A stretch of DNA of 64,000 nt, taken from NCBI RefSeq assembly GCF_003790525.1, contig NZ_CP033635.1; one strand, 5' to 3'. Positions 1-14,728 of this stretch are shown piece by piece. The notes beneath the pieces were generated by a model. The model saw only the letters and a list, made by a program, of their open reading frames with translations, ran no database searches and was not told the origin of the DNA. Origin of the DNA: Escherichia coli. Lineage in GTDB: Bacteria; Pseudomonadota; Gammaproteobacteria; Enterobacterales; Enterobacteriaceae. A program made the translations under genes and the position numbers. Positions within the stretch are counted from its first letter, which is position 1. Every line of letters begins with the position of its first letter.

Positions 1-216
1 ATGAGCACCGGCCGTAAGCACGTTATGTTATTGTTTCATTAGTAATAATCACTTAAATGTATCGATGAAACAGGTATGACTTAGCGGGAGTGATTGTTTC
101 TGAGTGAACAGAGACCACTTTAGCCTGATAAATGAAAAATGAGCGATTTTTGCAAGTTAGTTTTTCTATAGCCGAGTACGCTCAGCGCCTCGCTTGATTA
201 CAATGAGGTTGCTGCT

Positions 217-1161
217 ATGAGTCCTGATAATATCGGTTCGGCTGTCAATCGCTTCTCAGGTTGGCCATCTAATGATCCTCTAAAAACAGATAACGAATCA
301 ATGACATCACCCGTGGCTGTGCAGGTAATAAAGATGATTGCCGCCATCCTTGACCCATATCGGATAGTCGTTGGAATCGATACACTTTATACAACGCAGC
401 GCGAAACATTTACCTCAGAGAGTCAACAGCTCATTGAATCAGCATTGCAAACACTTCATGTGATAAATTTAAATAACCTGGAAACAAATCTCGATGAGGA
501 CGGTCACTATCTGGCTTTTGGATATAACGTTGACACTCCTGACAGAATAACCGTTTCTGCTTATAATGAAAAAAAGCCTGGCTGCTATGGCCAATGTCTT
601 TTAATACAGGATGACGAAACAGACTTATTTAACCTGATAAAAGTTAAAATTTTTGAAGCCAGGCATAATTATGTCGCTCAATTGATGAGAGATCCGGAAT
701 TTATGTTCAAATTTAGTTATAGCGCTCAACAAAATAGATTAGAACCTCATCTTCTGGTTCCCACTTATTTCCCTCTAAAAACAAACGAACCGGTTACGCA
801 AGAGGATGTACTGTTACTTTATCGTTTCTTTAAAATGGATGGTGATTTTAATATATTAACATCAGATGAATACATGAGTATCATGACACCTCTGATGAAG
901 TGTGAGCGTAGCATCCACGACCACAACAGGTATGTGACGGGCAAAGATACCCTTCTTCTGGACTATCCTCCTTCTGGTAACCAGATATATTTCCATATTT
1001 TTCCTGACGAATCAGCAACACTAGTCCTTTATTTTTCAAACAATGACATTGAATGTTTCGTCTTTGAAAGAGATATTCCGAGCCAGTATCGCTTTTTCAA
1101 AATGTTTACCAATCTGGCACTGGTTATTGATCAGTTAACTGATGCCAATCAAATACTTTAA
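217..1161 (+). CDS. hypothetical protein, 314 aa, low-GC, no recognisable family
   Basis: ORF with AGG-type RBS about 9 nt upstream of the ATG. N-terminus is Ser/Thr/Asn/Pro-rich with no hydrophobic signal peptide. Internal repeated motif YRFFKM appears twice. GC clearly below the core genes in the window. Confidence 0.55.
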   Translation: MSPDNIGSAVNRFSGWPSNDPLKTDNESMTSPVAVQVIKMIAAILDPYRIVVGIDTLYTTQRETFTSESQQLIESALQTLHVINLNNLETNLDEDGHYLAFGYNVDTPDRITVSAYNEKKPGCYGQCLLIQDDETDLFNLIKVKIFEARHNYVAQLMRDPEFMFKFSYSAQQNRLEPHLLVPTYFPLKTNEPVTQEDVLLLYRFFKMDGDFNILTSDEYMSIMTPLMKCERSIHDHNRYVTGKDTLLLDYPPSGNQIYFHIFPDESATLVLYFSNNDIECFVFERDIPSQYRFFKMFTNLALVIDQLTDANQIL

Positions 1162-1241
1162 TTTTTATATATTCCCTGTGGCAAATATTGCTAAACAATG
1201 CCTGGGGATTAATTTTTATTACTCACGGAAAGATTTAAATA

Positions 1242-1664
1242 ATGATCCCATCTCAAATCTCTTTCAACACCCTTCCTGTCAATGCAACATACGCTTCAGA
1301 GACAACAGTTGACACACAAAAATTCTCTGACATCCTCTACTCAGCGGGGTGTTCCCTAAAGGATCTGGCTTATCTGAGCAGATGTCTGGCATCAATACAT
1401 CCGACTATCGCCAAAAACATTTATGAAACAGAAAATCTCAGCGATCAAAAATTACTACATATTGATTGCCGTAGTACAAATGAAATCAAGATAAATATCT
1501 TTTTTGGTCAACAACGAGAAGGATTAATTGAAATTAATTCTGACACTGTCATTTTTTCGATATTGTCTTCATTAATTGACTCCGCCATTTCTAAATTTCA
1601 ACACCAAATCCCCGTTAACGGTTCAGTTAATCGTGAACTATTGTATGAGGATTATACTGATTAA
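1242..1664 (+). CDS. hypothetical small acidic protein, 140 aa, partner of upstream ORF
   Basis: ORF starts 80 bp downstream of the 314-aa ORF on the same strand. By my count about 20 Asp/Glu against about 10 Lys/Arg. No transmembrane segment or signal peptide seen. Confidence 0.45.
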   Translation: MIPSQISFNTLPVNATYASETTVDTQKFSDILYSAGCSLKDLAYLSRCLASIHPTIAKNIYETENLSDQKLLHIDCRSTNEIKINIFFGQQREGLIEINSDTVIFSILSSLIDSAISKFQHQIPVNGSVNRELLYEDYTD

Positions 1665-2210
1665 ATCCACCCAGTCGCGAAAATGGCCTGCGTTATTGCC
1701 AGAGGTAATAAAACCTTTGATTAACGTTACTCATACTGGTAGCACCTTCATGTACCTCTCTTTTTTACGAAAAATCAAAAGAGCTAACTAAGGTCATAAT
1801 TCGCATGAATCATTAACCATTTGTTATTTTCAACATTATTTTTACATTAAGCAGAGATGAATTGCAGTGAAATTCGACTTAAATTTTATGAAATGCATTT
1901 ACTCATGGCTAAACCCATATCACTAAAATGCAAATTAGAAGTAGATCACAAATACCTCAATACACCAAATCAAGTTAATTTTAAAAATTTAACATTCATG
2001 ACATTAGTTGACATAACACACTGAATTAACATGAGAATTTAACAACATACTTTAAACAATCATTTCCCGAAAGACATTTTGAAAATAGATCAATTGCAAC
2101 ATTACGGTCAGATAAAGACACTCCTGTGATATTAAACCTGTGCCGTTATGAACGGCCATAAATACGACGTGTGTAACTTATTTTACTCTCTGTCTTACAA
2201 AGGATTACCC
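1665..2210. promoter_or_regulatory. AT-rich non-coding leader / promoter region upstream of the glutamate mutase operon
   Basis: About 540 bp without a convincing ORF, visibly far more AT-rich than the flanking genes, immediately upstream of the first gene of a six-gene coupled operon. Confidence 0.4.
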
Positions 2211-2660
2211 ATGAAGAAAGCAACACTTGTGATTGGCGTTATTGGCGCGGACTGCCATGCAGTAGGCAATAAAGTTCTGGACCGCGTTTTTAGCAACCAT
2301 GGCTTCAGAGTCATTAATCTGGGCGTAATGGTCAGCCAGGACGAATATATTGATGCGGCCATTGAAACTGGCGCTGACGCGATTGTCGTCTCCTCTATCT
2401 ATGGGCATGGCGATATCGACTGTCTGGGCATGCGCGAACGCTGCATCGAGCGTGGACTGGGGGACATCCTGCTCTATGTGGGCGGTAACCTGGTGGTCGG
2501 AAAACATGACTTCGCTGACGTGGAAACCAAATTCAAAGAGATGGGATTTGATCGCGTCTTTGCCCCAAGTCATGACTTAGAAGATGTTTGTCAGCTGATG
2601 GCCCACGATATCAACCAACGTCATGACGTTGATACTCGTATTCTTGAAGAGGCAATCTGA
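2211..2660 (+). CDS. glutamate mutase S (sigma) subunit, B12-binding component of methylaspartate mutase
   Basis: Translation from [21 protein letters not shown] matches the cobalamin-binding small subunit, including the DxHxxG motif (DCHAVG). Start chosen at the internal ATG preceded by AAGGA; the track ORF starts 21 codons earlier. Confidence 0.85.
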
Positions 2661-4048
2661 TGCAAATCGTCTCTGTCGATATTGGATCGACGTGGACCAA
2701 AGCAGCCCTCTTCGCCCGGGAGGGGGACGCGTTAACGTTGGTTAACCACGTACTGACCCCAACCACCACCCATCATCTGGCGAAGGGGTTTTTCTCCAGC
2801 CTGAACCTGGTGTTAAACGTAGATAATGCCCTCCCCCTGTTTAACAACGGTGAGGTTGCATTGAAGTATTCCTCCTCTGCCAAAGGTGGGCTGGCGGTTG
2901 CCGCAATGGGGTTGGTGCCTTCTATCACCCTGGAAACCGCGAAAGTAACCGCTCACTCTGCGGGGGCTAAAATTGCGCAATATTACTCCTACAAGCTGAA
3001 CCGCCGTGATATCCAGGCACTGGAAGAAACGCAGCCCGATATTCTCTTGTTCACCGGCGGCACCGACGGCGGAGAAGAAAGCTACGGCCTGAATAACGCC
3101 CGTGTGCTGGCAGAATCCAAACTCGACTGCGCCATTATTTATGCCGGAAACCGGGATATTCAGGACGAGGTGCAGGAGATCCTAGGGCATAAAGACCTGA
3201 CCATCGTCGACAACGTTCTGCCCGATCTTGACCATCCGAACCCTTTAGCTGCACGCCAGGCTATCTGCGACATATTCCTTAAACGCATCGTTAAAGGGAA
3301 AGGGCTGGATGTCGTTGTTGATAAAACAGGCGAAGAACCAATGCCGACACCGTGGACAGTCTTTGAACTGGTTAAGGCAATCAGTAATGTCGATCACAGC
3401 TGGAAAGAGTTCATGCTGATCGACATGGGTGGCGCAACCACCGATGTCTATTCCGCCTGTGCCAACACGCTCTCGCCCGACACCGTTTTACACGGCGTAC
3501 CGGAACCCTTCGTGAAACGGACGGTGGAAGGCGATCTGGGAATGCGCGTCTCGGCAATGGTGGTTGGTGAAAGTGCGAAAGAGTTAGTCAATGTGAATTT
3601 TGCTCAGCAACCCGCACAGCTGGACGCTTTTTATCATTACCTCCGTCATCTAGTCGCTCATCCCGACTACTTACCCGCGAATGCAGAAGAAAAATATTTC
3701 GATACCGTCCTGGCCGGACTGTGTGTGGGTTATGCCACCGAAAGACATGCGGGCACCAAAAAAGAGGTCTGCACCTGTGTCGGCAATGTCGATTTACAGA
3801 TGGGACGTGACCTGACAACCGTGCGTAAAGTCGTCGGAACCGGCGGATGGCTCTCGCGTGCCAGTCAGTTCGATATGCATCACTGGTTGAAATACCGCGA
3901 GTTAAACGACGACGGTAAACGCATTCTCTTACCGACCGAATTTGAATATTACCGCGATTCCCGGGGGCTATTACCACTGCTGGCAAACGTCGCCAGAGTC
4001 GATCCGCTGGCCGCCGCGCGCACCAGTATTCAATGCTTAACCCTATAA
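2660..4048 (+). CDS. glutamate mutase L component (MutL/GlmL-type accessory protein)
   Basis: 462-aa ORF whose ATG overlaps the upstream stop (TGATG), sitting between the S and E subunit genes as in clostridial glutamate mutase operons. Confidence 0.75.
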   Translation: MQIVSVDIGSTWTKAALFAREGDALTLVNHVLTPTTTHHLAKGFFSSLNLVLNVDNALPLFNNGEVALKYSSSAKGGLAVAAMGLVPSITLETAKVTAHSAGAKIAQYYSYKLNRRDIQALEETQPDILLFTGGTDGGEESYGLNNARVLAESKLDCAIIYAGNRDIQDEVQEILGHKDLTIVDNVLPDLDHPNPLAARQAICDIFLKRIVKGKGLDVVVDKTGEEPMPTPWTVFELVKAISNVDHSWKEFMLIDMGGATTDVYSACANTLSPDTVLHGVPEPFVKRTVEGDLGMRVSAMVVGESAKELVNVNFAQQPAQLDAFYHYLRHLVAHPDYLPANAEEKYFDTVLAGLCVGYATERHAGTKKEVCTCVGNVDLQMGRDLTTVRKVVGTGGWLSRASQFDMHHWLKYRELNDDGKRILLPTEFEYYRDSRGLLPLLANVARVDPLAAARTSIQCLTL

Positions 4049-4066
4049 CAATTAAGGCTGCAATCA

Positions 4067-5512
4067 ATGGAACTTCGAAATAAGAAATTAACCCATGACG
4101 AATTCATGACCGAGCGGCAACAGGTACTGAAAACCTGGGAAACCGGCAAGGATGTTGAAAACTTTGAAGATGGCGTTAAATACCAACAAACCATTCCTGA
4201 GCATAAACGCTTCTCTCTTGCCCTGCTGAAAGCAGACAAGGAAGGTAAAACTCTTAGCCAACCGCGCGCAGGCGTGGCGCTGATGGACGAACACATCGAA
4301 CTACTGAAAACACTACAAGAAGAATGCGATCTGCTGCCGAGCACCATCGACGCATATACCCGTCTGAATCGGTACGAAGAAGCGGCTGTAGGGATTAAAA
4401 AATCCATCGAAGCCGGAACCTCTAAACTGAACGGTTTACCGGTCGTTAACCACGGCGTCGCAGCTTGCCGTCGCCTCACCGAAACTTTGCAAAAACCGCT
4501 ACAGATCCGCCACGGCACGCCAGATGCGCGTCTGCTGGCTGAAATCTCGATGGCCAGCGGCTTTACCAGTTATGAAGGCGGCGGCATTTCCTACAATATT
4601 CCGTATGCCAAGCGCGTAACGCTGGAAAAATCGATCCGCGACTGGCAGTACTGCGACCGTTTAATGGGGATGTATGAAGAACACGGGATCCGCATCAACC
4701 GCGAACCGTTTGGCCCACTAACGGGTACCCTGATCCCGCCGTTTATCTCGCACTCTATCGCGATAATCGAAGGCTTGCTGGCGCTGGAACAGGGTGTGAA
4801 ATCTATCACCGTTGGTTATGGACAGGTCGGCAGCCTGACGCAGGATGTTGCGGCGATCCAGTCTCTGCGTGAACTTGCACACGAATATTTTCAGAGCTAT
4901 GGCTATACCGACTATGAATTAAGTACCGTGTTTCACCAGTGGATGGGCGGCTTTCCGGAAGACGAATCGAAAGCGTTCGCTATTATCTCCTGGGGCGCAG
5001 CCGTCGCGGGGATGTCTGGTGCCACCAAAGTCATCACCAAAAGTCCGCACGAAGCCTGGGGTATCCCGACTGCCGCTGCCAACATTCAGGGGCTGAAAGC
5101 CTCCCGCCAGATGCTCAACATGGTCAACGAGCAGAAATTCCCGCCGTGCCCTGCGGTTGAACTGGAAATTGAACTGATTAAGAGCGAGGTTCGCGCGGTA
5201 CTGAATAAAGTGTTCGAACTGGGTAATGGTGATATTGCGCGCGGTACGGTGCTGGCATTTGAAGCGGGCGTACTGGATGTGCCGTTTGCGCCAGCCGCCT
5301 GCAACGCGGGCAAAATTCTTCCGGTCCGTGACAACACCGGCGCGATACGCGTACTGGAAGCCGGAGCCGTTCCATTGCCAAAAGATATTCTCGACCTCCA
5401 CCACGATTACGTTGCGGAACGCGCACGCTTTGAAGGACGCCAACCGACATTCCAGATGGTTGTAGATGACATCAATGCTGTATCCCACAGTAAATTAATA
5501 GGAAGACCATAA
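4067..5512 (+). CDS. glutamate mutase E (epsilon) catalytic subunit
   Basis: 481-aa translation (MELRNKKLTHDEF ... FQMVVDDINAVSHSKLIGRP) colinear with clostridial GlmE/MutE across its full length. Confidence 0.9.
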   Translation: MELRNKKLTHDEFMTERQQVLKTWETGKDVENFEDGVKYQQTIPEHKRFSLALLKADKEGKTLSQPRAGVALMDEHIELLKTLQEECDLLPSTIDAYTRLNRYEEAAVGIKKSIEAGTSKLNGLPVVNHGVAACRRLTETLQKPLQIRHGTPDARLLAEISMASGFTSYEGGGISYNIPYAKRVTLEKSIRDWQYCDRLMGMYEEHGIRINREPFGPLTGTLIPPFISHSIAIIEGLLALEQGVKSITVGYGQVGSLTQDVAAIQSLRELAHEYFQSYGYTDYELSTVFHQWMGGFPEDESKAFAIISWGAAVAGMSGATKVITKSPHEAWGIPTAAANIQGLKASRQMLNMVNEQKFPPCPAVELEIELIKSEVRAVLNKVFELGNGDIARGTVLAFEAGVLDVPFAPAACNAGKILPVRDNTGAIRVLEAGAVPLPKDILDLHHDYVAERARFEGRQPTFQMVVDDINAVSHSKLIGRP

Positions 5513-6753
5513 TGAAAATAAAACAGGCTCTGTTCACCGCTGGCTACTCCTCATTCTATTTCGATGACCAGCAGGCGATAAAAAACGGAGCGGGTCATGA
5601 CGGCTTTTTTTATACCGGGGAGCCGGTAACACAGGGGTTTAACGCCGTTCGTCAGGCCGGGGAGTGCGTATCGGTACAGTTGATTCTGGAAAACGGCGCG
5701 GTCGCCGTAGGTGACTGTGCTGCCGTACAGTATTCCGGGGCAGGTGGTCGCGATCCACTGTTCCTCGCTGAGCACTTTATTCCGTTCCTCAACGACCATA
5801 TCAAGCCATTACTGGTAGGCCGCGATGTGGATGCTTTCCTGCCGAATGCCCGTTTCTTCGACAAATTGCGTATTGACGGCAACTTGCTGCATACCGCCGT
5901 GCGCTACGGATTATCACAGGCGCTGCTTGATGCTACCGCGCTGGCAACCGGCCGTCTGAAAACTGAAGTGGTCTGTGATGAATGGCAGTTGCCACGCGTG
6001 GCGGAATCCATTCCATTATTTGGTCAGAGCGGGGACGATCGATATATCGCCGTCGATAAGATGATCCTTAAGGGCATCGACGTGCTGCCCCATGCACTGA
6101 TTAATAACGTCGAAGAGAAACTGGGCTTTAAAGGTGAAAAACTGCGCGAATATGTCCGCTGGCTGTCGGATCGTATTCTGAGCAAGCGCACCAGCGCACG
6201 CTACCACCCTACCCTGCACATCGATGTATACGGCACTATCGGTCTGATCTTCGATATGGATCCGCTTCGCTGTGCGCAATACATCGCCAGCCTGGAAAAA
6301 GAAGCGCAAGGCCTGCCGCTCTACATTGAAGGGCCGGTCGATGCCGGTAACAAGCCCGATCAAATTCGCCTGCTGACCGCGATTACCAAAGAGCTGACGC
6401 GCCTCGGTTCCGGCGTGAAAATTGTGGCCGATGAATGGTGTAACACCTACCAGGATATTGTTGATTTCACTGATGCCGCCAGTTGCCACATGGTGCAAAT
6501 CAAAACCCCGGATCTGGGCAGTATTCACAACATCGTCGATGCAGTTCTTTATTGCAACAGCCACAGCATGGAAGCGTACCAGGGCGGCACCTGCAATGAA
6601 ACTGATGTCAGTGCCCGCACCTGTGTCCACGTCGCCCTTGCCGCTCGCCCCATGCGTATGCTGGTAAAACCAGGGATGGGCTTTGACGAAGGCCTCGATA
6701 TCGTCTTCAACGAAATGAATCGTACTATCGCGCTGTTGCAGGCTAAGGATTAA
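5512..6753 (+). CDS. 3-methylaspartate ammonia-lyase
   Basis: 413-aa translation colinear with clostridial methylaspartase (conserved blocks AVQYSGAGGRDPLF, HALINNVEEKLG, HMVQIKTPDLG, CNETD). Start overlaps the glmE stop. Confidence 0.92.
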   Translation: MKIKQALFTAGYSSFYFDDQQAIKNGAGHDGFFYTGEPVTQGFNAVRQAGECVSVQLILENGAVAVGDCAAVQYSGAGGRDPLFLAEHFIPFLNDHIKPLLVGRDVDAFLPNARFFDKLRIDGNLLHTAVRYGLSQALLDATALATGRLKTEVVCDEWQLPRVAESIPLFGQSGDDRYIAVDKMILKGIDVLPHALINNVEEKLGFKGEKLREYVRWLSDRILSKRTSARYHPTLHIDVYGTIGLIFDMDPLRCAQYIASLEKEAQGLPLYIEGPVDAGNKPDQIRLLTAITKELTRLGSGVKIVADEWCNTYQDIVDFTDAASCHMVQIKTPDLGSIHNIVDAVLYCNSHSMEAYQGGTCNETDVSARTCVHVALAARPMRMLVKPGMGFDEGLDIVFNEMNRTIALLQAKD

Positions 6754-6756
6754 CAA

Positions 6757-8127
6757 ATGGCTCGTTCTTTTAAAGTCTTATCGCCAACGGCAATCCTCGG
6801 GTATGGATTCCCGGAAGAGAGCTTCCGCAAAGCGATGGCAGAATCGCCCGATCTGATCGCCGTTGATGCAGGCTCTTCCGATCCTGGCCCCCACTACCTC
6901 GGGGCGGGCAAACCGTTTACCGATCGCGCAGGGGTCAAGCGTGATTTGCGCTATATGATCACCGCAGGCGTGCAAAATAATATACCGGTGGTGATCGGAA
7001 CGGCCGGCGGTTCTGGTGCCGCTCCACACCTGGAGTGGTGCCGAGAAATAATTCATGAGATTGCCCGGGAAGAGCAACTCGCGTTCTCGATGGCGCTGAT
7101 CCCGGCAGACGTTGACAAAGCCATCGTCCACCAGGCGCTGGATAACGGCAAAATCACGGCGCTGGATTTTGTCCCGCCGTTAACCCACGACGCGATTGAC
7201 GAAAGTACGTATATCGTCGCGCAAATGGGCATCGAACCCTTCCAGCGGGCGCTGAAAGAAGGCGCGCAAGTGGTGCTGGGCGGGCGCGCTTACGACCCGG
7301 CCTGCTTTGCTGCGCTCCCGATCATGCAAGGCTTTGATGAAGGTCTGGCGCTGCATTGTGGGAAAATCCTTGAATGCGCGGCAATCGCCGCAACGCCCGG
7401 CTCAGGCTCTGACTGTGCGATGGGCATCATTGATGACAACGGCTTTACGCTGAAGACATTTAATCCGAAGCGTAAATTTACCGAAACGTCAGCGGCTGCA
7501 CACACACTGTATGAGAAATCCGATCCCTACTTCCTGCCTGGACCTGGCGGCGTGTTGAACCTGAAAGGCTGCACATTTAAAGCGGTCAATGACGGCGAAG
7601 TGTACGTCAGCGGTTCTAAGCATGAAGAAACGCCGTATGCCCTGAAACTGGAAGGTGCGCGACGGGTGGGCTTCCGCTGTCTGACCATCGCAGGAACGCG
7701 CGACCCGATCATGATCGCCGGGATCGATAAAATCATCGATGAAGTCAAAACCAGCGTTTCACGTAACCTGTCGCTCGACGATGACAGCATTCGCATCAAT
7801 TTCCACCTGTACGGCAAAAACGGGGTGATGGGCGACCATGAACCGATGCAAACTGCCGGGCATGAGCTGGGGATTGTCCTTGATGTAGTTGCACCGACCC
7901 AGGAAATTGCCAATAGCGTTTGCTCGCTGGTGCGCTCTACCATGCTGCACTACGGCTATGAAAACCGCATCGCTACCGCAGGCAATCTGGCGTTCCCGTT
8001 CTCCCCTTCTGATATCCAGGGCGGGCCGGTATACGAATTTTCCATATATCACCTGATTGAAGCCAACGACGCTCTGCGTTTTGATTTCCATATTGAACAG
8101 GTGACGCCAGAAGGAGTTCAGGCATGA
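6757..8127 (+). CDS. uncharacterised 456-aa protein, possibly DUF1446/AtuA-like
   Basis: ORF begins 4 nt after the methylaspartase stop in the same operon. Family assignment is from memory and tentative; no catalytic motif recognised. Confidence 0.6.
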   Translation: MARSFKVLSPTAILGYGFPEESFRKAMAESPDLIAVDAGSSDPGPHYLGAGKPFTDRAGVKRDLRYMITAGVQNNIPVVIGTAGGSGAAPHLEWCREIIHEIAREEQLAFSMALIPADVDKAIVHQALDNGKITALDFVPPLTHDAIDESTYIVAQMGIEPFQRALKEGAQVVLGGRAYDPACFAALPIMQGFDEGLALHCGKILECAAIAATPGSGSDCAMGIIDDNGFTLKTFNPKRKFTETSAAAHTLYEKSDPYFLPGPGGVLNLKGCTFKAVNDGEVYVSGSKHEETPYALKLEGARRVGFRCLTIAGTRDPIMIAGIDKIIDEVKTSVSRNLSLDDDSIRINFHLYGKNGVMGDHEPMQTAGHELGIVLDVVAPTQEIANSVCSLVRSTMLHYGYENRIATAGNLAFPFSPSDIQGGPVYEFSIYHLIEANDALRFDFHIEQVTPEGVQA

Positions 8128-8441
8128 AACAGTCAATTGTCTCACTGGCGCAAGTCATTCGTTCGAAAAATGCCGGACCTTACGAACTGGTTTTAGATAT
8201 TTTATTTAAAACGAAAGAAAACTATGAGCGAGTTAAATCATCAGGGCAATTAACCCCAGAACTGATTGCGCGCTTATATCATGTTGAACCTGACTTTATT
8301 CACCGTATTGTCTGGTTTGATCCTTCTAACGCAGTAAAAATCGTCATGCCACGAGATATTATCTCCGGGAATGTAGGTGACAATGATGTCTATGGTGCAC
8401 AGCAACATGCACCTTTATTAAATATGAGTTTCGATTTGTAA
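8124..8441 (+). CDS. uncharacterised 105-aa protein, possibly DUF4387-like partner of the upstream ORF
   Basis: Start overlaps the upstream stop by 4 nt (ATGA). Family assignment tentative. Confidence 0.55.
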   Translation: MKQSIVSLAQVIRSKNAGPYELVLDILFKTKENYERVKSSGQLTPELIARLYHVEPDFIHRIVWFDPSNAVKIVMPRDIISGNVGDNDVYGAQQHAPLLNMSFDL

Positions 8442-8601
8442 AAATCCGAATACTTTTAGCCAACTGACATCCCGTCACTTATTGCAGTTCAACACTTCAG
8501 CTATTTGTAAGGTTGTAATAGCAGGTAGATGCCTGAATCTCTATTCAGGCTTCTACTTCTCCTGATTCTGATTTATCGCCGTGCACCTGATGGAGGAAAA
8601 A

Positions 8602-9882
8602 ATGAAGAAAATAAGTTTAACCACGATGATTCTTTTGGCGCTGGTACTTGGAATGATTATCGGCGTAGTGCTCAATAACACTGCTTCACCGGAAACCGCA
8701 AAACTCTATGCGCAAGAAATATCGATATTCACGACGATTTTCTTACGACTGATAAAAATGATTATCGCTCCGTTAGTGGTCTCTACCCTGGTGGTAGGTA
8801 TAGCTAAAATGGGAGATGCCAAAGCCCTTGGTCGTATTTTTTCTAAAACACTCTTTTTATTTATTTGCGCCTCATTGCTGTCAATCGCCTTAGGCTTGAT
8901 AACAGTAAATTTCTTCATGCCAGGCACAGGAATTAATTTTGTTGCACACGGAGCCGAAACCACCGGAGTGGTCGCGTCAGAACCCTTTACGCTAAAAGTA
9001 TTTATTTCGCATGCTTTCCCCACCAGCATTGTCGATGCCATGGCGCACAATGAAATTTTGCAAATCGTGGTGTTCTCAATTTTCCTCGGCTGTAGCCTGA
9101 CGGCGATTGGTGAGAAAGGCAGCGCCATCGTTCACGCCTTAGATTCGCTGGCACATGCCATGTTAAAGCTCACTGGCTACGTCATGCTCTTCGCTCCCCT
9201 GACCGTATTCGCCGCTATTTCAGCATTGATTGCTGAACGAGGACTGGCAGTTATGGTGAGCGCCGGGATCTTTATGGGTGAATTTTATTTCACCATGTTG
9301 TTACTTTGGGTGCTGCTTATCGGTCTGGCCATCGTTTATGTCGGCCCCTGCATCAGACGCCTGACCCGTGCCCTTTCGGAACCCGCCCTGCTGGCATTTA
9401 CCACATCCAGTTCTGAAGCGGCTTTTCCGGGAACGCTTGAAAAACTGGAGCAATTTGGCGTTTCCCCCAAAATTGCCAGCTTTGTCTTACCCATTGGCTA
9501 CTCATTTAATCTCGTTGGATCAATGGCCTACTGCTCCTTCGCCACAGTTTTCATCGCCCAGGCCTGCAATATCCATTTATCCATCGGTGAGCAAATCACC
9601 ATGCTGTTGATCCTGATGTTGACCTCGAAAGGAATGGCTGGCGTACCACGCGCCTCAATGGTGGTTATCGCCGCCACGCTCAACCAGTTCAATATTCCGG
9701 AAGCGGGGCTGATCTTGCTGATGGGCGTTGATCCGTTCCTTGATATGGGGCGTTCCGCGACAAACGTCATGAGCAACGCAATGGGCGCTGCGATGGTGAG
9801 TCGGTGGGAAGGCGAACATTTCGGCGAGGGCTGTCGGGGTAAAGCATTAAAACCCAATGAATCGAACGTTGCTCTGCCCTGA
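8602..9882 (+). CDS. dicarboxylate/amino acid:cation symporter (GltP/DctA family)
   Basis: Multi-pass hydrophobic protein with GltP-like blocks. Start set at the ATG (MKKISL) preceded by GGAGG; the track ORF begins at an upstream GTG. Confidence 0.8.
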   Translation: MKKISLTTMILLALVLGMIIGVVLNNTASPETAKLYAQEISIFTTIFLRLIKMIIAPLVVSTLVVGIAKMGDAKALGRIFSKTLFLFICASLLSIALGLITVNFFMPGTGINFVAHGAETTGVVASEPFTLKVFISHAFPTSIVDAMAHNEILQIVVFSIFLGCSLTAIGEKGSAIVHALDSLAHAMLKLTGYVMLFAPLTVFAAISALIAERGLAVMVSAGIFMGEFYFTMLLLWVLLIGLAIVYVGPCIRRLTRALSEPALLAFTTSSSEAAFPGTLEKLEQFGVSPKIASFVLPIGYSFNLVGSMAYCSFATVFIAQACNIHLSIGEQITMLLILMLTSKGMAGVPRASMVVIAATLNQFNIPEAGLILLMGVDPFLDMGRSATNVMSNAMGAAMVSRWEGEHFGEGCRGKALKPNESNVALP

Positions 9883-9989
9883 GGGGGATCTTAAGCAATC
9901 AGAAGCCAATGACTACGCATTTTTATAAGCCGGATCATGAAGTTAGACGGCAATTAAGTAAAACTAACGTTTAAGGTGAAAAGTGAAAT

Positions 9990-11642
9990 ATGTCCAAACC
10001 ATTTATCTGGCAAGAACCGTTTCTACAAAATAAAGACGGTACAGAATATACATTAATTAGCGATCAACATATTACAGTAACGGAATTAGACGGCGAAGAA
10101 GTGATAAAAATCGCTCCTGAAGCATTAACGCTGCTTGCCCGGCAGGCATTTTATGAAGCCTCTTTTTTCTTACGTTCCGCTCATTTGCAACAGGTCGCCA
10201 GCATTCTTAACGATCCGCACGCCAGTAGTAATGATAAATACGTTGCGTTGCAGTTATTACGTAATGCTGAAGTCTCAGCAAAAGGGGTATTACCCAACTG
10301 TCAGGATACCGGCACCGCAACTATTGTTGCCAGTAAAGGGCAACAGATATGGACCGGAGGTAACGACGCTGAAGCCTTAAGCAAAGGCATTTACACCACT
10401 TTTCAGGAAAATAATCTGCGCTTTTCACAAAATGCGCCACTGGATATGTTTACCGAAGTCAATACGCAAACCAATCTCCCGGCGCAGATTGATATCAGCG
10501 CCGTCGCTGGTGATGAGTACCATTTTCTCTGTATTAATAAAGGGGGCGGCTCTGCCAATAAAGCCGCGCTTTATCAGGAAACCAAATCCCTATTGCAACC
10601 AGAAAAACTGACCGCATTTTTAATCGAAAAAATGAAATCGCTGGGCACCGCTGCCTGCCCGCCTTACCACATCGCCTTTGTCGTCGGAGGGCTTTCAGCC
10701 GATCAAACCTTAAAAGTTGCCAAGCTGGCCTCAACGAAATATTACGACAATTTGCCCACCAGCGGAAACGAGCAAGGACAAGCATTCCGTGATATTGAGC
10801 TGGAAAAAGTATTGCTCGAGGCCAGTCAGCAATTTGGTATTGGTGCGCAATTTGGGGGTAAATATTTCGCTCATGATATTCGCGTCATTCGTCTGCCGCG
10901 TCACGGTGGCTCTTGCCCGATAGCTATGGCGCTCTCCTGTTCTGCGGATCGCAATATCAAAGCAAAAATTAACAAGCACGGTATCTGGCTGGAAAAACTC
11001 GAACACAATCCGGGGCAATATATTCCAGCCTCACTGCGGGAAGAAAATCACGCGCAACATGTACAGCTGGATCTAAACCGTCCGTTGCGTGACGTGATGC
11101 AGGATCTCGCCAGATTACCGGTAGGCACCCGCGTGTCGTTAAGTGGTCCCATCGTAGTGGCGCGCGATATCGCCCACGCCAAAATAAAAGCGCGGCTGGA
11201 TAGCGGCGAACCGATGCCGGATTACCTGAAGCATCATATTGTCTATTACGCTGGCCCGGCGAAAACACCGGAGAACATGGCCTGCGGTTCACTGGGTCCA
11301 ACCACGGGCGGTCGAATGGACGGTTATGTCGATACCTTCCAGGCGGCTGGCGGCAGTCTGGTGATGTTATCGAAAGGTAACCGCAGCCAGCAGGTCACCG
11401 ATGCCTGTCACAAACATGGCGGCTTCAATCTGGGGAGTATTGGCGGTGCAGCTGCGTTACTGGCGCAAGAATATGTCAAAAGTCTGCGTTGCCTGGAATA
11501 CCCGGAGCTGGGTATGGAAGCGGTGTGGATGATGGAAGTGGAAAATTTACCCGCATTCATCCTGGTAGATGATAAAGGCAATAATTTCTTTAGTCAGTTT
11601 GAGCAGCAACACCGCTGCGCCAGTTGCCCTGCGGGACATTAA
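9990..11642 (+). CDS. class I (Fe-S) fumarate hydratase paralog, FumA/FumB-like; candidate mesaconase
   Basis: 550-aa translation colinear with E. coli FumA (e.g. [35 protein letters not shown]). The mesaconase role is inferred from operon context only. Confidence 0.85.
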
Positions 11643-11651
11643 GGAAAATGA

Positions 11652-12254
11652 ATGGAAGCGCGAATTTCAACTGAACGGCATGTGCAGCGCCAGCAGAAAT
11701 TGAAGGAACAGGTCGATACGCGCGTCGCGGCGGCGATAGAGAAAAAAGGGATTTTGATTGTTTTCACCGGCAATGGCAAAGGGAAATCCACTGCCGCGTT
11801 TGGTACTGTGACGCGCGCGGTGGGTCATGGCAAAACGGTGGGGGTTGCGCAGTACATCAAGGGGCAATGGGACAACGGCGAATACAACCTTCTCCAGCCG
11901 CTGGGGGTTGAGTTTCATATTATGGGAACCGGTTTTACCTGGGAGACACAGAACCGGCAAGCGGATATCGACGCGGCGAAAGAGGTCTGGTCGGAAAGCA
12001 AACGGATGCTGGCTGACAAGCGTTACGACTTAGTGGTGCTTGATGAGCTGACCTATATGCTGGCTTACCATTATCTGGATACCGAAGAAGTGATCGCTTC
12101 TCTGCAAAACCGCCCGGCACAACAAAGTGTCATTGTCACCGGACGCGGTTGCCACAGTCAGATATTAAAAATGGCGGATACGGTCAGCGAAATCCGCCCC
12201 GTCAAACATGCTTTTGATAACGGCATTCAGGCCCAGCCGGGTATCGACTGGTAA
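11652..12254 (+). CDS. corrinoid adenosyltransferase paralog (BtuR/CobA family)
   Basis: 200-aa translation closely colinear with E. coli BtuR, including the P-loop-like block IVFTGNGKGKSTAAFG. Confidence 0.85.
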   Translation: MEARISTERHVQRQQKLKEQVDTRVAAAIEKKGILIVFTGNGKGKSTAAFGTVTRAVGHGKTVGVAQYIKGQWDNGEYNLLQPLGVEFHIMGTGFTWETQNRQADIDAAKEVWSESKRMLADKRYDLVVLDELTYMLAYHYLDTEEVIASLQNRPAQQSVIVTGRGCHSQILKMADTVSEIRPVKHAFDNGIQAQPGIDW

Positions 12255-12287
12255 TAACTGCGCCTGGCATCCCGCCAGGCGCAGGTT

Positions 12288-13193
12288 TTACATCTCCTGC
12301 GGTACGACCGATTTCGCCAGCAACCATTCACGAAATTGCTGCAAGTGCGGTGAGTCAGACTTCTCTTCCTGCCACGTCATAATAAAACGATTACCGGTAC
12401 GAATAGGCACATCACAGGGAATCACCATATCGCCACTATCCAAATCATGTTGAATAGCGAACCGTGGTAACAGCGCCACGCCGAGATTAGAGCGCACGGC
12501 GGCAATCAGCATTGAAAGCAAATCGAAACGTGGTCCGTTATTGACCAGCGGACTGCTAACGCCAGATAAAGCAAACCACTCTTCCCAGCCAGTAATACGG
12601 GTGCTTTGATGCAGAAGTGGTAACTCAGTAAGCAGTTCTGCCACTGACAGTTTTTGATCGGACATTGCAAGCAAACTGCCGCTGCATACCGGCAAAATCT
12701 CCTCATCAAAGAGATATTCTACTTCCGCCCAGGGCGCGCAAAAATTTTCGCGCATAATGACAGCATCGTACTCCCGATTAAGAAAATCGCCGTTATTAGC
12801 TAAAGAATGAATATTAACAATAATATCGGGATGTAACTTTGTGAATTCATGTAAATTTGGGATTAACCAGTGGGTACTAAACGTAGGATTCACGGCAAGT
12901 TCAATAACCTGAACCGTAGGCTGCCAGGTCATAATGGTATTGGTATCGCGTTCCAGCTTATTTAATGTTTCTTTTACTATCCCCAGGTAATACTTCCCTG
13001 CATCATTAAGAAAAATGCGTTTTTTAGAGTGTGAAAATAACGGAGTATGTAAAAATTCCTCCAGCGCACTTACTTGTCTGAATACTGCACTTTGGGTTAA
13101 CGCTAACTCCTCTGCCGCTCTGGTATAACTTTCATGACGTGCGACGACCTCAAAAGTCACCAGCAGTTCCGTTTTAGGTATTTTTCCTCGCAT
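12288..13193 (-). CDS. LysR-family transcriptional regulator
   Basis: 301-aa ORF with an N-terminal helix-turn-helix (TRAAEELALTQSAVFRQVSALEE) and a LysR substrate-binding domain. Convergent with the upstream operon. Confidence 0.85.
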   Translation of the reverse strand: MRGKIPKTELLVTFEVVARHESYTRAAEELALTQSAVFRQVSALEEFLHTPLFSHSKKRIFLNDAGKYYLGIVKETLNKLERDTNTIMTWQPTVQVIELAVNPTFSTHWLIPNLHEFTKLHPDIIVNIHSLANNGDFLNREYDAVIMRENFCAPWAEVEYLFDEEILPVCSGSLLAMSDQKLSVAELLTELPLLHQSTRITGWEEWFALSGVSSPLVNNGPRFDLLSMLIAAVRSNLGVALLPRFAIQHDLDSGDMVIPCDVPIRTGNRFIMTWQEEKSDSPHLQQFREWLLAKSVVPQEM

Positions 13194-13770
13194 AATGCCT
13201 TCCCTTAAAAATAGTTGAAACTATCAAAAAACCATTACTTATTGCTAAGTAATGGCAACCAAAGCAGCAATCAATATTTTATAAAAATCATGTTCGATAT
13301 TTATAACCTGGTAAGCCTGGCGTGACAATTGTCTTAATCAGATAATAATAATCCGAAAAGCACAGCACCTTTCGAATTATCAGGAATTACATTAAGTGAA
13401 AATTATTAAATTGATATCATTTATCATATCTGTGGATATTATGATAAACAATCAACATAGATTTTATTTTTGATTTATAGCATATCCCTCTAAGAATTTT
13501 TGCGATGCTTCAATATCCGGGGTAAAGACCCGATCCTGACTGACAAATGGCACGACTTGACGATAAGCGGTGAACATCGCTTTTGTTGATTTACTTAACG
13601 CTACGGTCAAACGCTGGGAAGCCAGTGCATCAGGTAACGATTCGAAATTCGCCGTCGTTCTTATTCGTGGCTTGCGGTCGGTCGCGGCAATCCACAGTGG
13701 CTGTGGTCATGCAGTCAAGCCTGCAGTCAGATTCCGACCGTGGTTAACGTTTAAGGCATAAAAAAGGCCA

Positions 13771-13858
13771 TCATATGATGGCCAACCATGTCGAAACCGA
13801 CAGCCCTTCGCCATTCCTGTAGAGGGAAGCGGCGAGGGCTATTTCTTATTACAGATAT
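13771..13858 (-). ncRNA. sdhX: sucD 3'-UTR small RNA (SdhX/RybD-type) ending in an intrinsic terminator
   Basis: Region immediately after the sucD stop on the minus strand ends in the perfect palindrome GGCCATCATATGATGGCC followed by a T-run. Identity as SdhX rests on position and recollection; 5' end approximate. Confidence 0.45.
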
Positions 13859-14728
13859 TTATTTCAGAACAGTTTTCAGTGCTTCACCGATATCCGCCAG
13901 GCTGCGAACGGTTTTCACGCCTGCGGCTTCCAGAGCAGCAAATTTCTCATCCGCAGTCCCTTTCCCACCGGCAATGATGGCACCCGCGTGGCCCATACGT
14001 TTGCCTTTCGGCGCAGTCACACCAGCGATGTAACCCACAACAGGCTTGGTAACGTGCTCTTTGATGTACGCAGCCGCTTCTTCTTCAGCGCTACCGCCGA
14101 TCTCACCGATCATCACGATCGCTTCGGTCTGCGGATCTTTTTCGAACATTTCGAGGATGTCGATAAAGTTAGAGCCAGGGATCGGGTCGCCGCCGATACC
14201 AACACAGGTCGACTGACCGAAACCGTAATCCGTGGTCTGTTTAACCGCTTCATAGGTCAGTGTACCGGAACGGGAAACGATACCCACTTTACCCGGTTTG
14301 TGAATGTGACCAGGCTGGATACCGATTTTGCATTCACCCGGAGTGATAACGCCCGGGCAGTTCGGGCCGATCATGCGAACGCCCGCTTCATCCAGTTTCA
14401 CCTTCACGGTCAGCATATCCAGCGTCGGGATGCCTTCAGTGATGGTGATAATCAGTTTGATGCCTGCATCAATAGCTTCCAGAATGGAGTCTTTGCAGAA
14501 CGGTGCTGGTACGTAGATAACAGAAGCGGTAGCGCCAGTAGCAGCAACAGCTTCACGCACGGTGTTGAACACCGGCAGGCCGAGGTGGGTGGTGCCGCCT
14601 TTACCTGGGGTTACGCCGCCAACCATTTTAGTGCCGTATGCAATAGCCTGTTCTGAGTGGAAAGTCCCCTGGCTACCGGTAAAGCCCTGGCAGATAACCT
14701 TGGTGTTTTTATCAATTAAAATGGACAT
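13859..14728 (-). CDS. sucD: succinyl-CoA synthetase alpha subunit
   Basis: 289-aa translation recognised as SucD. Confidence 0.97.

Follow-up and report, generated by a model that had tools for sequence, protein, structure and literature searches.

Why should an Escherichia coli chromosome encode a further class I fumarase and a further BtuR-type adenosyltransferase, side by side and on a variable island, in addition to the core FumA, FumB and BtuR? Are the two genes spare copies, or do they belong to the pathway encoded around them? We addressed these questions in a stretch of 64,000 nucleotides (the window) that is identical to the chromosome of E. coli SMS-3-5 (NC_010498.1). Our reading, to which we assign a probability of roughly 85%, is that fumD and cobA close the enterobacterial gene cluster for the methylaspartate route of glutamate fermentation, in which FumD serves as the mesaconase and CobA feeds glutamate mutase. 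The identities of the genes are established, as are the kinetics of FumD on a 99% identical protein; we infer the activity of CobA, its link to glutamate mutase, co-transcription and the role in vivo. As a discovery this carries little weight: a 2015 paper (Kronen & Berg, PLoS One; PMC4682846) already described FumD, its preference for mesaconate and its genetic linkage with glutamate mutase and methylaspartase, and showed cobA as a member of the cluster.

A gene cluster in a variable chromosomal segment

Both genes lie within a variable segment of ~13.97 kb that extends from ~212 nt before the start of the window to window position 13755. It stands in place of the 5.9-kb mngR-mngA-mngB of K-12, between sdhX/sucD and the region upstream of cydA. 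A first-pass annotation of this DNA had placed a fumarase gene and an adenosyltransferase gene at 9990-12254, and two same-strand open reading frames are found there, at 9990-11642 and 11652-12254. The tight linkage that it described holds as well; the gap is 9 nt (11643-11651), not the 10 bp given there. It had also placed the fumarase next to methylaspartase, from which three genes (~3.2 kb) separate it. The order of genes, as annotated in RefSeq, is glmS-glmL-glmE-mal-AtuA-DUF4387-symporter-fumD-cobA, with lysR convergent (Table 1).

Table 1. Features of the fumD-cobA island, in window coordinates.
Feature	Coordinates	Strand	Basis
glmS-glmL-glmE-mal	2211..6753	+	RefSeq annotation
AtuA/DUF1446 (456 aa) and DUF4387 (105 aa), equivalents of CmlA and CmlB	6757..8441	+	
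Dicarboxylate/amino acid:cation symporter (GltP/DctA-like)	8602..9882	+	RefSeq and profile matches
fumD: class I ([4Fe-4S]) fumarate hydratase paralog, promiscuous mesaconase/fumarase	9990..11642	+	ORF, 550 aa
fumD-cobA junction, 9 nt, GGAAAATGA	11643..11651	+	sequence read
cobA (RefSeq name cobO): second, island-borne CobA/BtuR-type ATP:co(I)rrinoid adenosyltransferase	11652..12254	+	ORF, 200 aa
G+C-rich hairpin, 11 pairs (9 G-C), between convergent cobA and lysR	12258..12284	.	fold
LysR-type regulator, convergent with cobA; drawn as LTTR in Fig. 5 of Kronen & Berg	12288..13193	-	

The first four genes encode the glutamate mutase S subunit, the accessory protein GlmL (511.6 bits against the NCBIfam profile NF040745, cutoff 475), the glutamate mutase E subunit and methylaspartate ammonia-lyase. 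Genes for all parts of the pathway are thereby present in the cluster: glutamate mutase S and E, the GlmL/MutL reactivase, methylaspartase, mesaconase and a putative citramalate-cleaving enzyme. The symporter is matched by both the GltP and the DctA models, in each case below the model's own cutoff, and is presumed from its sequence to take up glutamate. FumD, CobA, the LysR-type regulator (LTTR) and GltP are drawn in one cluster in Fig. 5 of Kronen & Berg (PMC4682846). Two low-GC open reading frames at the left end of the island have no match in PADLOC or NCBIfam.

How would such a cluster operate? Glutamate, once taken up, would be converted to methylaspartate by AdoCbl-dependent glutamate mutase together with GlmL, and methylaspartate to mesaconate by methylaspartase. 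FumD, an oxygen-labile [4Fe-4S] class I hydratase, would add water to mesaconate, and the resulting (S)-citramalate would be cleaved to pyruvate and acetate by CmlAB. CobA, for its part, would use ATP to adenosylate reduced cob(I)alamin and may thus lift the supply of AdoCbl for glutamate mutase while the operon is on, as PduO and EutT do for pdu and eut.

The steps of this pathway and the glmS/glmL/glmE/mal core are shared with the methylaspartate clusters of clostridia, from which the enterobacterial version departs in three respects. Mesaconase in clostridia, MesAB, is a class I enzyme made of two subunits, whereas FumD is fused; the clostridial lyase is of the citrate-lyase-like CitDEF type, whereas that of enterobacteria is of the AtuA/DUF4387 type (CmlAB); and CobA and GlsA are present in the clusters of some enterobacterial lineages, as against those of clostridia.

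FumD and its preference for mesaconate

Profile scores place both proteins in the families that the first-pass annotation had named, class I fumarases and BtuR-type adenosyltransferases. FumD carries Fumerase (PF05681, 2e-74) and Fumerase_C (PF05683, 1.8e-78) in one chain and reaches 1284.7 bits against the NCBIfam equivalog NF011921 ('class I fumarate hydratase', cutoff 1060). It falls under the cutoffs of the models for FumA (926.3, cutoff 1105) and FumB (922.1, cutoff 1094), and is 68% identical to FumA and 67% to FumB of K-12. With ECs_0757 of O157:H7 Sakai it shares 542 of 550 residues (99%), and none of the eight substitutions falls on the 13 active-site residues mapped below. Kronen & Berg (PLoS One 2015; PMC4682846) purified ECs0757 under anaerobic conditions, gave it the name FumD and describe it as an oxygen-labile hydratase that can be reactivated with Fe2+ and thiol. 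The two proteins are alike in chromosomal site, gene neighbours and a score above the NF011921 cutoff, and differ in host, O157:H7 for the one and SMS-3-5 for the other.

Is FumD a mesaconase, or mainly a third class I fumarase isozyme, used for example in a condition-specific TCA cycle or in fumarate respiration, with its activity on mesaconate a promiscuity of the family? The published kinetics of ECs0757 speak to both sides of this question. Its fumarase Vmax is high (671 U/mg), and FumA and FumB hydrate mesaconate too, as expected if FumD were one more isozyme. Its kcat/Km, on the other hand, is 2x10^6 M-1 s-1 for mesaconate versus 7.5x10^5 M-1 s-1 for fumarate, while the efficiency of FumA and FumB on mesaconate amounts to 4% and 19% of their respective values for fumarate (PMC4682846). 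Expressed as the mesaconate/fumarate ratio of the published kcat/Km values, FumD favours mesaconate 2.7-fold, compared to 0.04-fold for FumA and 0.19-fold for FumB. The specialisation toward mesaconate put forward by the first-pass annotation is therefore real, as judged from the 99% identical ECs0757, yet it is modest, and FumD is still an effective fumarase.

Which residues could account for the shift? The first-pass annotation had proposed a comparison of active-site residues with FumA and BtuR. For FumD, we transferred the residue list of L. major FH-2 (bioRxiv 10.1101/2022.09.03.506457) onto a phmmer alignment to 5L2R. The cluster ligands C104, C223 and C317 of FumD correspond to C133, C252 and C346 of LmFH, and the catalytic and substrate residues are all present (Q105, D106, R144, G187, H305, R392, T438, T439, R442 and K462). 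All 13 positions, the three cysteine ligands and the ten residues of catalysis or substrate contact, are identical in FumD, FumA and FumB. A first-shell cause of the preference for mesaconate is thereby ruled out, and the shift in specificity must lie elsewhere than in the mapped first shell. The same identity sits well with a third isozyme.

We therefore aligned 11 FumD sequences with FumA, FumB, the fumarases of Hafnia and Providencia, and LmFH. At 13 positions the 11 FumD sequences share one residue that none of the non-FumD sequences aligned has. They include S461, the neighbour of the substrate-binding K462, as well as A312 and L315, which lie close to the cluster ligand C317; examples of the changes from FumA/FumB to FumD are A461S, G312A and K514M. 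These positions are candidates only for the shift in specificity, but as a set fixed in FumD they argue against a mere isozyme. A440G, A307G and A183N, which had also appeared specific to FumD, were dropped, as they occur in the ordinary fumarases of Hafnia and Providencia.

Gene context points in the same direction as the kinetics. All eight FumD orthologs of at least 76% identity whose context was examined lie inside a glm cluster, and in the nine loci that result when both E. coli strains are counted beside seven other taxa or replicons, fumD is always found in a glm/mal cluster and never alone. A Providencia fumarase that is 70% identical to FumD lies outside any glm cluster. FumA and FumB of E. 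coli resemble FumD in their two-domain fold family, the three cysteine ligands, the first-shell residues and the hydration of mesaconate, and differ from it in sequence, in their strong preference for fumarate and in linkage, fumC or dcuB being the neighbours on the FumA/FumB side and glm/mal on that of FumD. With the substrate ratio, the fixed positions and the nine loci set against it, we regard a role of FumD chiefly as a third fumarase as very improbable.

The second adenosyltransferase

The island CobA matches Pfam CobA_CobO_BtuR (PF02572) at 6e-64 and the TIGR00708 cobA equivalog with 246.6 bits (cutoff 167.75). It is 100% identical to ECs_0756 and 67% identical to BtuR of K-12, and aligns to Salmonella CobA (1G5R/4HUT) without gaps, with an offset of 4 (E=2.5e-88). 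The P-loop is intact (G40-N-G-K-G-K-S-T47), and F95 and W97 take the places of F91 and W93 in the Salmonella enzyme. The latter two were reportedly found critical for four-coordinate cob(II)alamin by Moore and co-workers in 2012. Compared to the housekeeping enzymes, BtuR and Salmonella CobA, with which it has the P-loop and the Phe/Trp pair in common, the island copy carries four extra N-terminal residues and a Ser for Thr in the P-loop. It is further set apart by its location inside a B12-enzyme operon, while BtuR is encoded at the yciK-btuR locus. It is a bona fide CobA/BtuR homolog that would act as an adenosyltransferase. Local supply of the cofactor for glutamate mutase and its re-adenosylation, both put forward by the first-pass annotation, would fit these data equally well. 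Our literature search found no experimental report on the island CobA, which Kronen & Berg name solely in the legend to their Fig. 5 (PMC4682846).

Does a cell that holds btuR make use of a second such enzyme? A sensitive blastn search gave matches in 5425 of 5426 complete genomes, at four places in carriers of the island, SMS-3-5 included, and at three in non-carriers. These three fit fumA, fumB and btuR, so carriers retain the core copies, as the first-pass annotation had supposed. E. coli is without B12 synthesis of its own, and salvaged corrinoid must be adenosylated. In the pdu and eut operons, dedicated adenosyltransferases, PduO and EutT, are encoded along with the B12 enzymes, an established pattern. 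The island shares this logic, in that an adenosyltransferase is encoded with the AdoCbl-dependent enzyme that it presumably serves. The proteins themselves are of families unrelated to CobA, whereas the island's dedicated enzyme belongs to the housekeeping CobA type.

The island cobA could also be a redundant hitch-hiker, a working duplicate of BtuR without a tie to glutamate mutase, the core BtuR providing the AdoCbl. Besides the retention of btuR in carriers, the distribution of cobA lends itself to this interpretation. The gene follows fumD directly in E. coli, Buttiauxella, Klebsiella huaxiensis, Citrobacter amalonaticus, Salmonella diarizonae and on an IncFIB plasmid of Salmonella Macclesfield, but the clusters of E. 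fergusonii and Pseudescherichia vulneris, collinear in other respects, lack it cleanly, so that the fumD stop abuts lysR there, at the same sucD-adjacent site. The gene is therefore an optional accessory of the cluster and not an obligatory part, and, with core btuR kept in every carrier, dispensable at least in some hosts. In a neighbor-joining tree of FumD, the sequences of E. fergusonii and P. vulneris fall outside the group whose clusters carry cobA, and within that group the branching order has poor bootstrap support (5-44%). This topology, together with the identity values, suggests that cobA may have been added to the cluster later.

Yet what was optional has been preserved. Between genera, both fumD and cobA show dN of 0.08-0.13 with dS saturated, and dN/dS of ~0.03-0.05 (~0.04 for cobA). 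Between SMS-3-5 and Sakai, which represent two phylogroups, cobA has four synonymous and no nonsynonymous differences. Both frames are intact, without internal stops, and the low dN/dS indicates that both genes are maintained by selection. The Shine-Dalgarno of cobA (tAAGGA) overlaps the TAA stop of fumD, and this arrangement, TAA-GGAG-N5/6-ATG, is kept in Salmonella, Buttiauxella, Klebsiella and Citrobacter; position and junction are shared by five genera and by a conjugative plasmid. Taken with the precedent of PduO and EutT, these observations make a mere hitch-hiker rather improbable in our view, and we favour a CobA that feeds glutamate mutase.

A stricter version of that role can be formulated, in which the island CobA is a later-acquired, lineage-specific module that delivers or regenerates AdoCbl directly for glutamate mutase, in concert with GlmL. 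The lineages concerned would be E. coli, Citrobacter, Klebsiella, Buttiauxella and Salmonella, as opposed to E. fergusonii and P. vulneris. We hold this only tentatively and consider it unlikely; if true, the presence of CobA would decide whether the pathway functions at low levels of non-adenosylated corrinoid in the gut. Because cobA varies between lineages, nature itself offers an experiment to ask if an operon for a B12 enzyme requires an adenosyltransferase of its own.

Expression, spread and the fate of citramalate

Could the cluster as a whole be cryptic in E. coli, kept by occasional selection in some unknown niche, with neither gene ordinarily contributing? For O157:H7 ATCC 700728, Kronen & Berg found no condition under which the cluster was expressed, and observed neither methylaspartase activity nor growth on glutamate, whether cobalamins were supplied or not (PMC4682846). 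The patchy spread of the fumD-cobA segment, which 1121 of 5426 complete E. coli genomes carry (~21%; 26.5% of strains for the cluster according to the same authors), would also be compatible with silence. Against this stand the intact frames, the strong purifying selection on both genes within and between species, the mobility of the cluster and its retention on a conjugative plasmid, and previous reports, to which Kronen & Berg refer, of methylaspartase activity as widespread in enterobacteria (PMC4682846). We therefore give a silent cluster a low probability and retain a working pathway as our preferred reading.

As to regulatory elements, an Rfam scan of window positions 1-14500 at E<=0.1 detected no cobalamin riboswitch and no other RNA family. 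A promoter scan gave fewer sigma-70-like matches than in shuffled sequence, and the 107 nt that precede fumD contained none. Both negative results count against our main reading. The LysR-type regulator gene is found in all clusters examined, and the hairpin that separates it from cobA is probably a bidirectional terminator ending the operon, as its sequence suggests.

The alternative occupant of the site, mngRAB, is found in 3884 genomes, which with the 1121 island carriers makes 5005 of 5426 as totals over the genome set. Three PLSDB entries labelled as plasmids had pointed to plasmid carriage in E. coli; they are records of 0.73-4.9 Mb and prove to be mislabelled chromosomes. The sole genuine plasmid copy found in PLSDB is that of Salmonella Macclesfield, a conjugative plasmid of 416 kb.

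What becomes of the citramalate formed by FumD? Its fate was 'still unclear' to Kronen & Berg in 2015 (PMC4682846). The AtuA and DUF4387 proteins encoded upstream of the symporter match chains A and B of PDB 9ERQ/9EVF over their full length, and 9ERQ is deposited as 'Citramalate lyase, subunit A (cmlA)' and 'subunit B (cmlB)'. Our literature search turned up no primary paper on what DUF1446/DUF4387 do, nor one of more recent date on the enterobacterial cluster. A 2026 preprint uses Cml (cmlAB) of Raoultella planticola, obtained from the Berg laboratory, to cleave citramalate directly to pyruvate and acetate (bioRxiv 10.64898/2026.01.16.699985). Going by the depositor's name and this mention, the AtuA/DUF4387 pair would be a putative citramalate lyase that acts after FumD, which would close the gap left by the 2015 paper. 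With CmlAB so deposited, the island appears to encode a full route from glutamate to pyruvate and acetate, and about a fifth of E. coli, O157:H7 among the carriers, would hold it.

Variable genes within a mobile cluster

Does cobA, the BtuR-type adenosyltransferase gene, belong to the constant part of the methylaspartate-pathway cluster? In E. fergusonii (L010) and Pseudescherichia vulneris (L011), the gene is wholly missing from clusters that are otherwise collinear and occupy the same sucD-adjacent site, with the convergent lysR directly adjoining or overlapping the stop codon of fumD, the mesaconase/fumarase gene. Because it is absent from these collinear clusters, cobA is a variable accessory of the cluster. 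Gene content also varies upstream of fumD: the clusters of Buttiauxella, Klebsiella, Citrobacter and Salmonella (comparison loci L008, L009, L012, L013 and L007) carry a gene for glutaminase, glsA, after the transporter gene and ahead of fumD; those of E. coli, E. fergusonii and P. vulneris do not.

The entire cluster, including glsA, fumD and cobA, is carried on the Salmonella Macclesfield plasmid NZ_CP022118.1 (L007, 6011-17155), a genuine conjugative plasmid of 416 kb (IncFIB/MOBF), on which transposase genes flank it. The cluster is horizontally mobile, and this plasmid copy is direct evidence of it. PLSDB further lists three E. coli 'plasmid' records with the island, NZ_CP134663.1 and NZ_CP141089.1 (4.9 Mb each) and CP088669.1 (730 kb); we rejected their plasmid status on length, as mislabelled chromosomes or chromosome fragments.

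Features of the island and of two comparison loci
Feature	Position	Strand	Remark
AtuA/DUF1446 protein, CmlA-like	window 6757-8127	+	full-length match to PDB 9ERQ/9EVF chain A
DUF4387 protein, CmlB-like	window 8124-8441	+	full-length match to PDB 9ERQ/9EVF chain B
fumD-lysR junction without cobA, E. fergusonii	L010 11654-11660		
fumD-lysR junction without cobA, P. vulneris	L011 ~11645-11659		
Region at right-hand island boundary	window 13756-13858		homology to K-12 sdhX sRNA
Hypothetical ORF, 314 aa	window 217-1161	+	
Hypothetical ORF, 140 aa	window 1242-1664	+	

A candidate citramalate lyase

The pair currently labelled 'AtuA family' and 'DUF4387' in RefSeq matches PDB 9ERQ/9EVF, named citramalate lyase CmlA/CmlB by its depositors, with bit scores of 973 and 193.5, respectively; NCBIfam has no model for either protein. 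Judged by this similarity, the CmlAB-like pair would supply the missing final step of the enterobacterial methylaspartate pathway.

For glmS and the transporter gene, the annotated RefSeq starts (2211 and 8602) are to be preferred over those of the mechanical ORFs 2148-2660 (ATG 2148) and 8581-9882 (GTG 8581), which lie upstream.

Island boundaries

On the right, the island ends no more than 2-3 nt from the point where homology to the K-12 sdhX sRNA (the 3' UTR of sucD) stops; an Rfam scan returned no family there. Whereas mngR neighbours sdhX in K-12, here a 562-nt spacer (38% G+C) precedes lysR. At the left end, both hypothetical ORFs sit in a stretch of 36% G+C, and neither matched anything in NCBIfam or PADLOC. 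Both are missing at the P. vulneris locus; their counterparts in O157 Sakai are ECs_0767 and ECs_0766.
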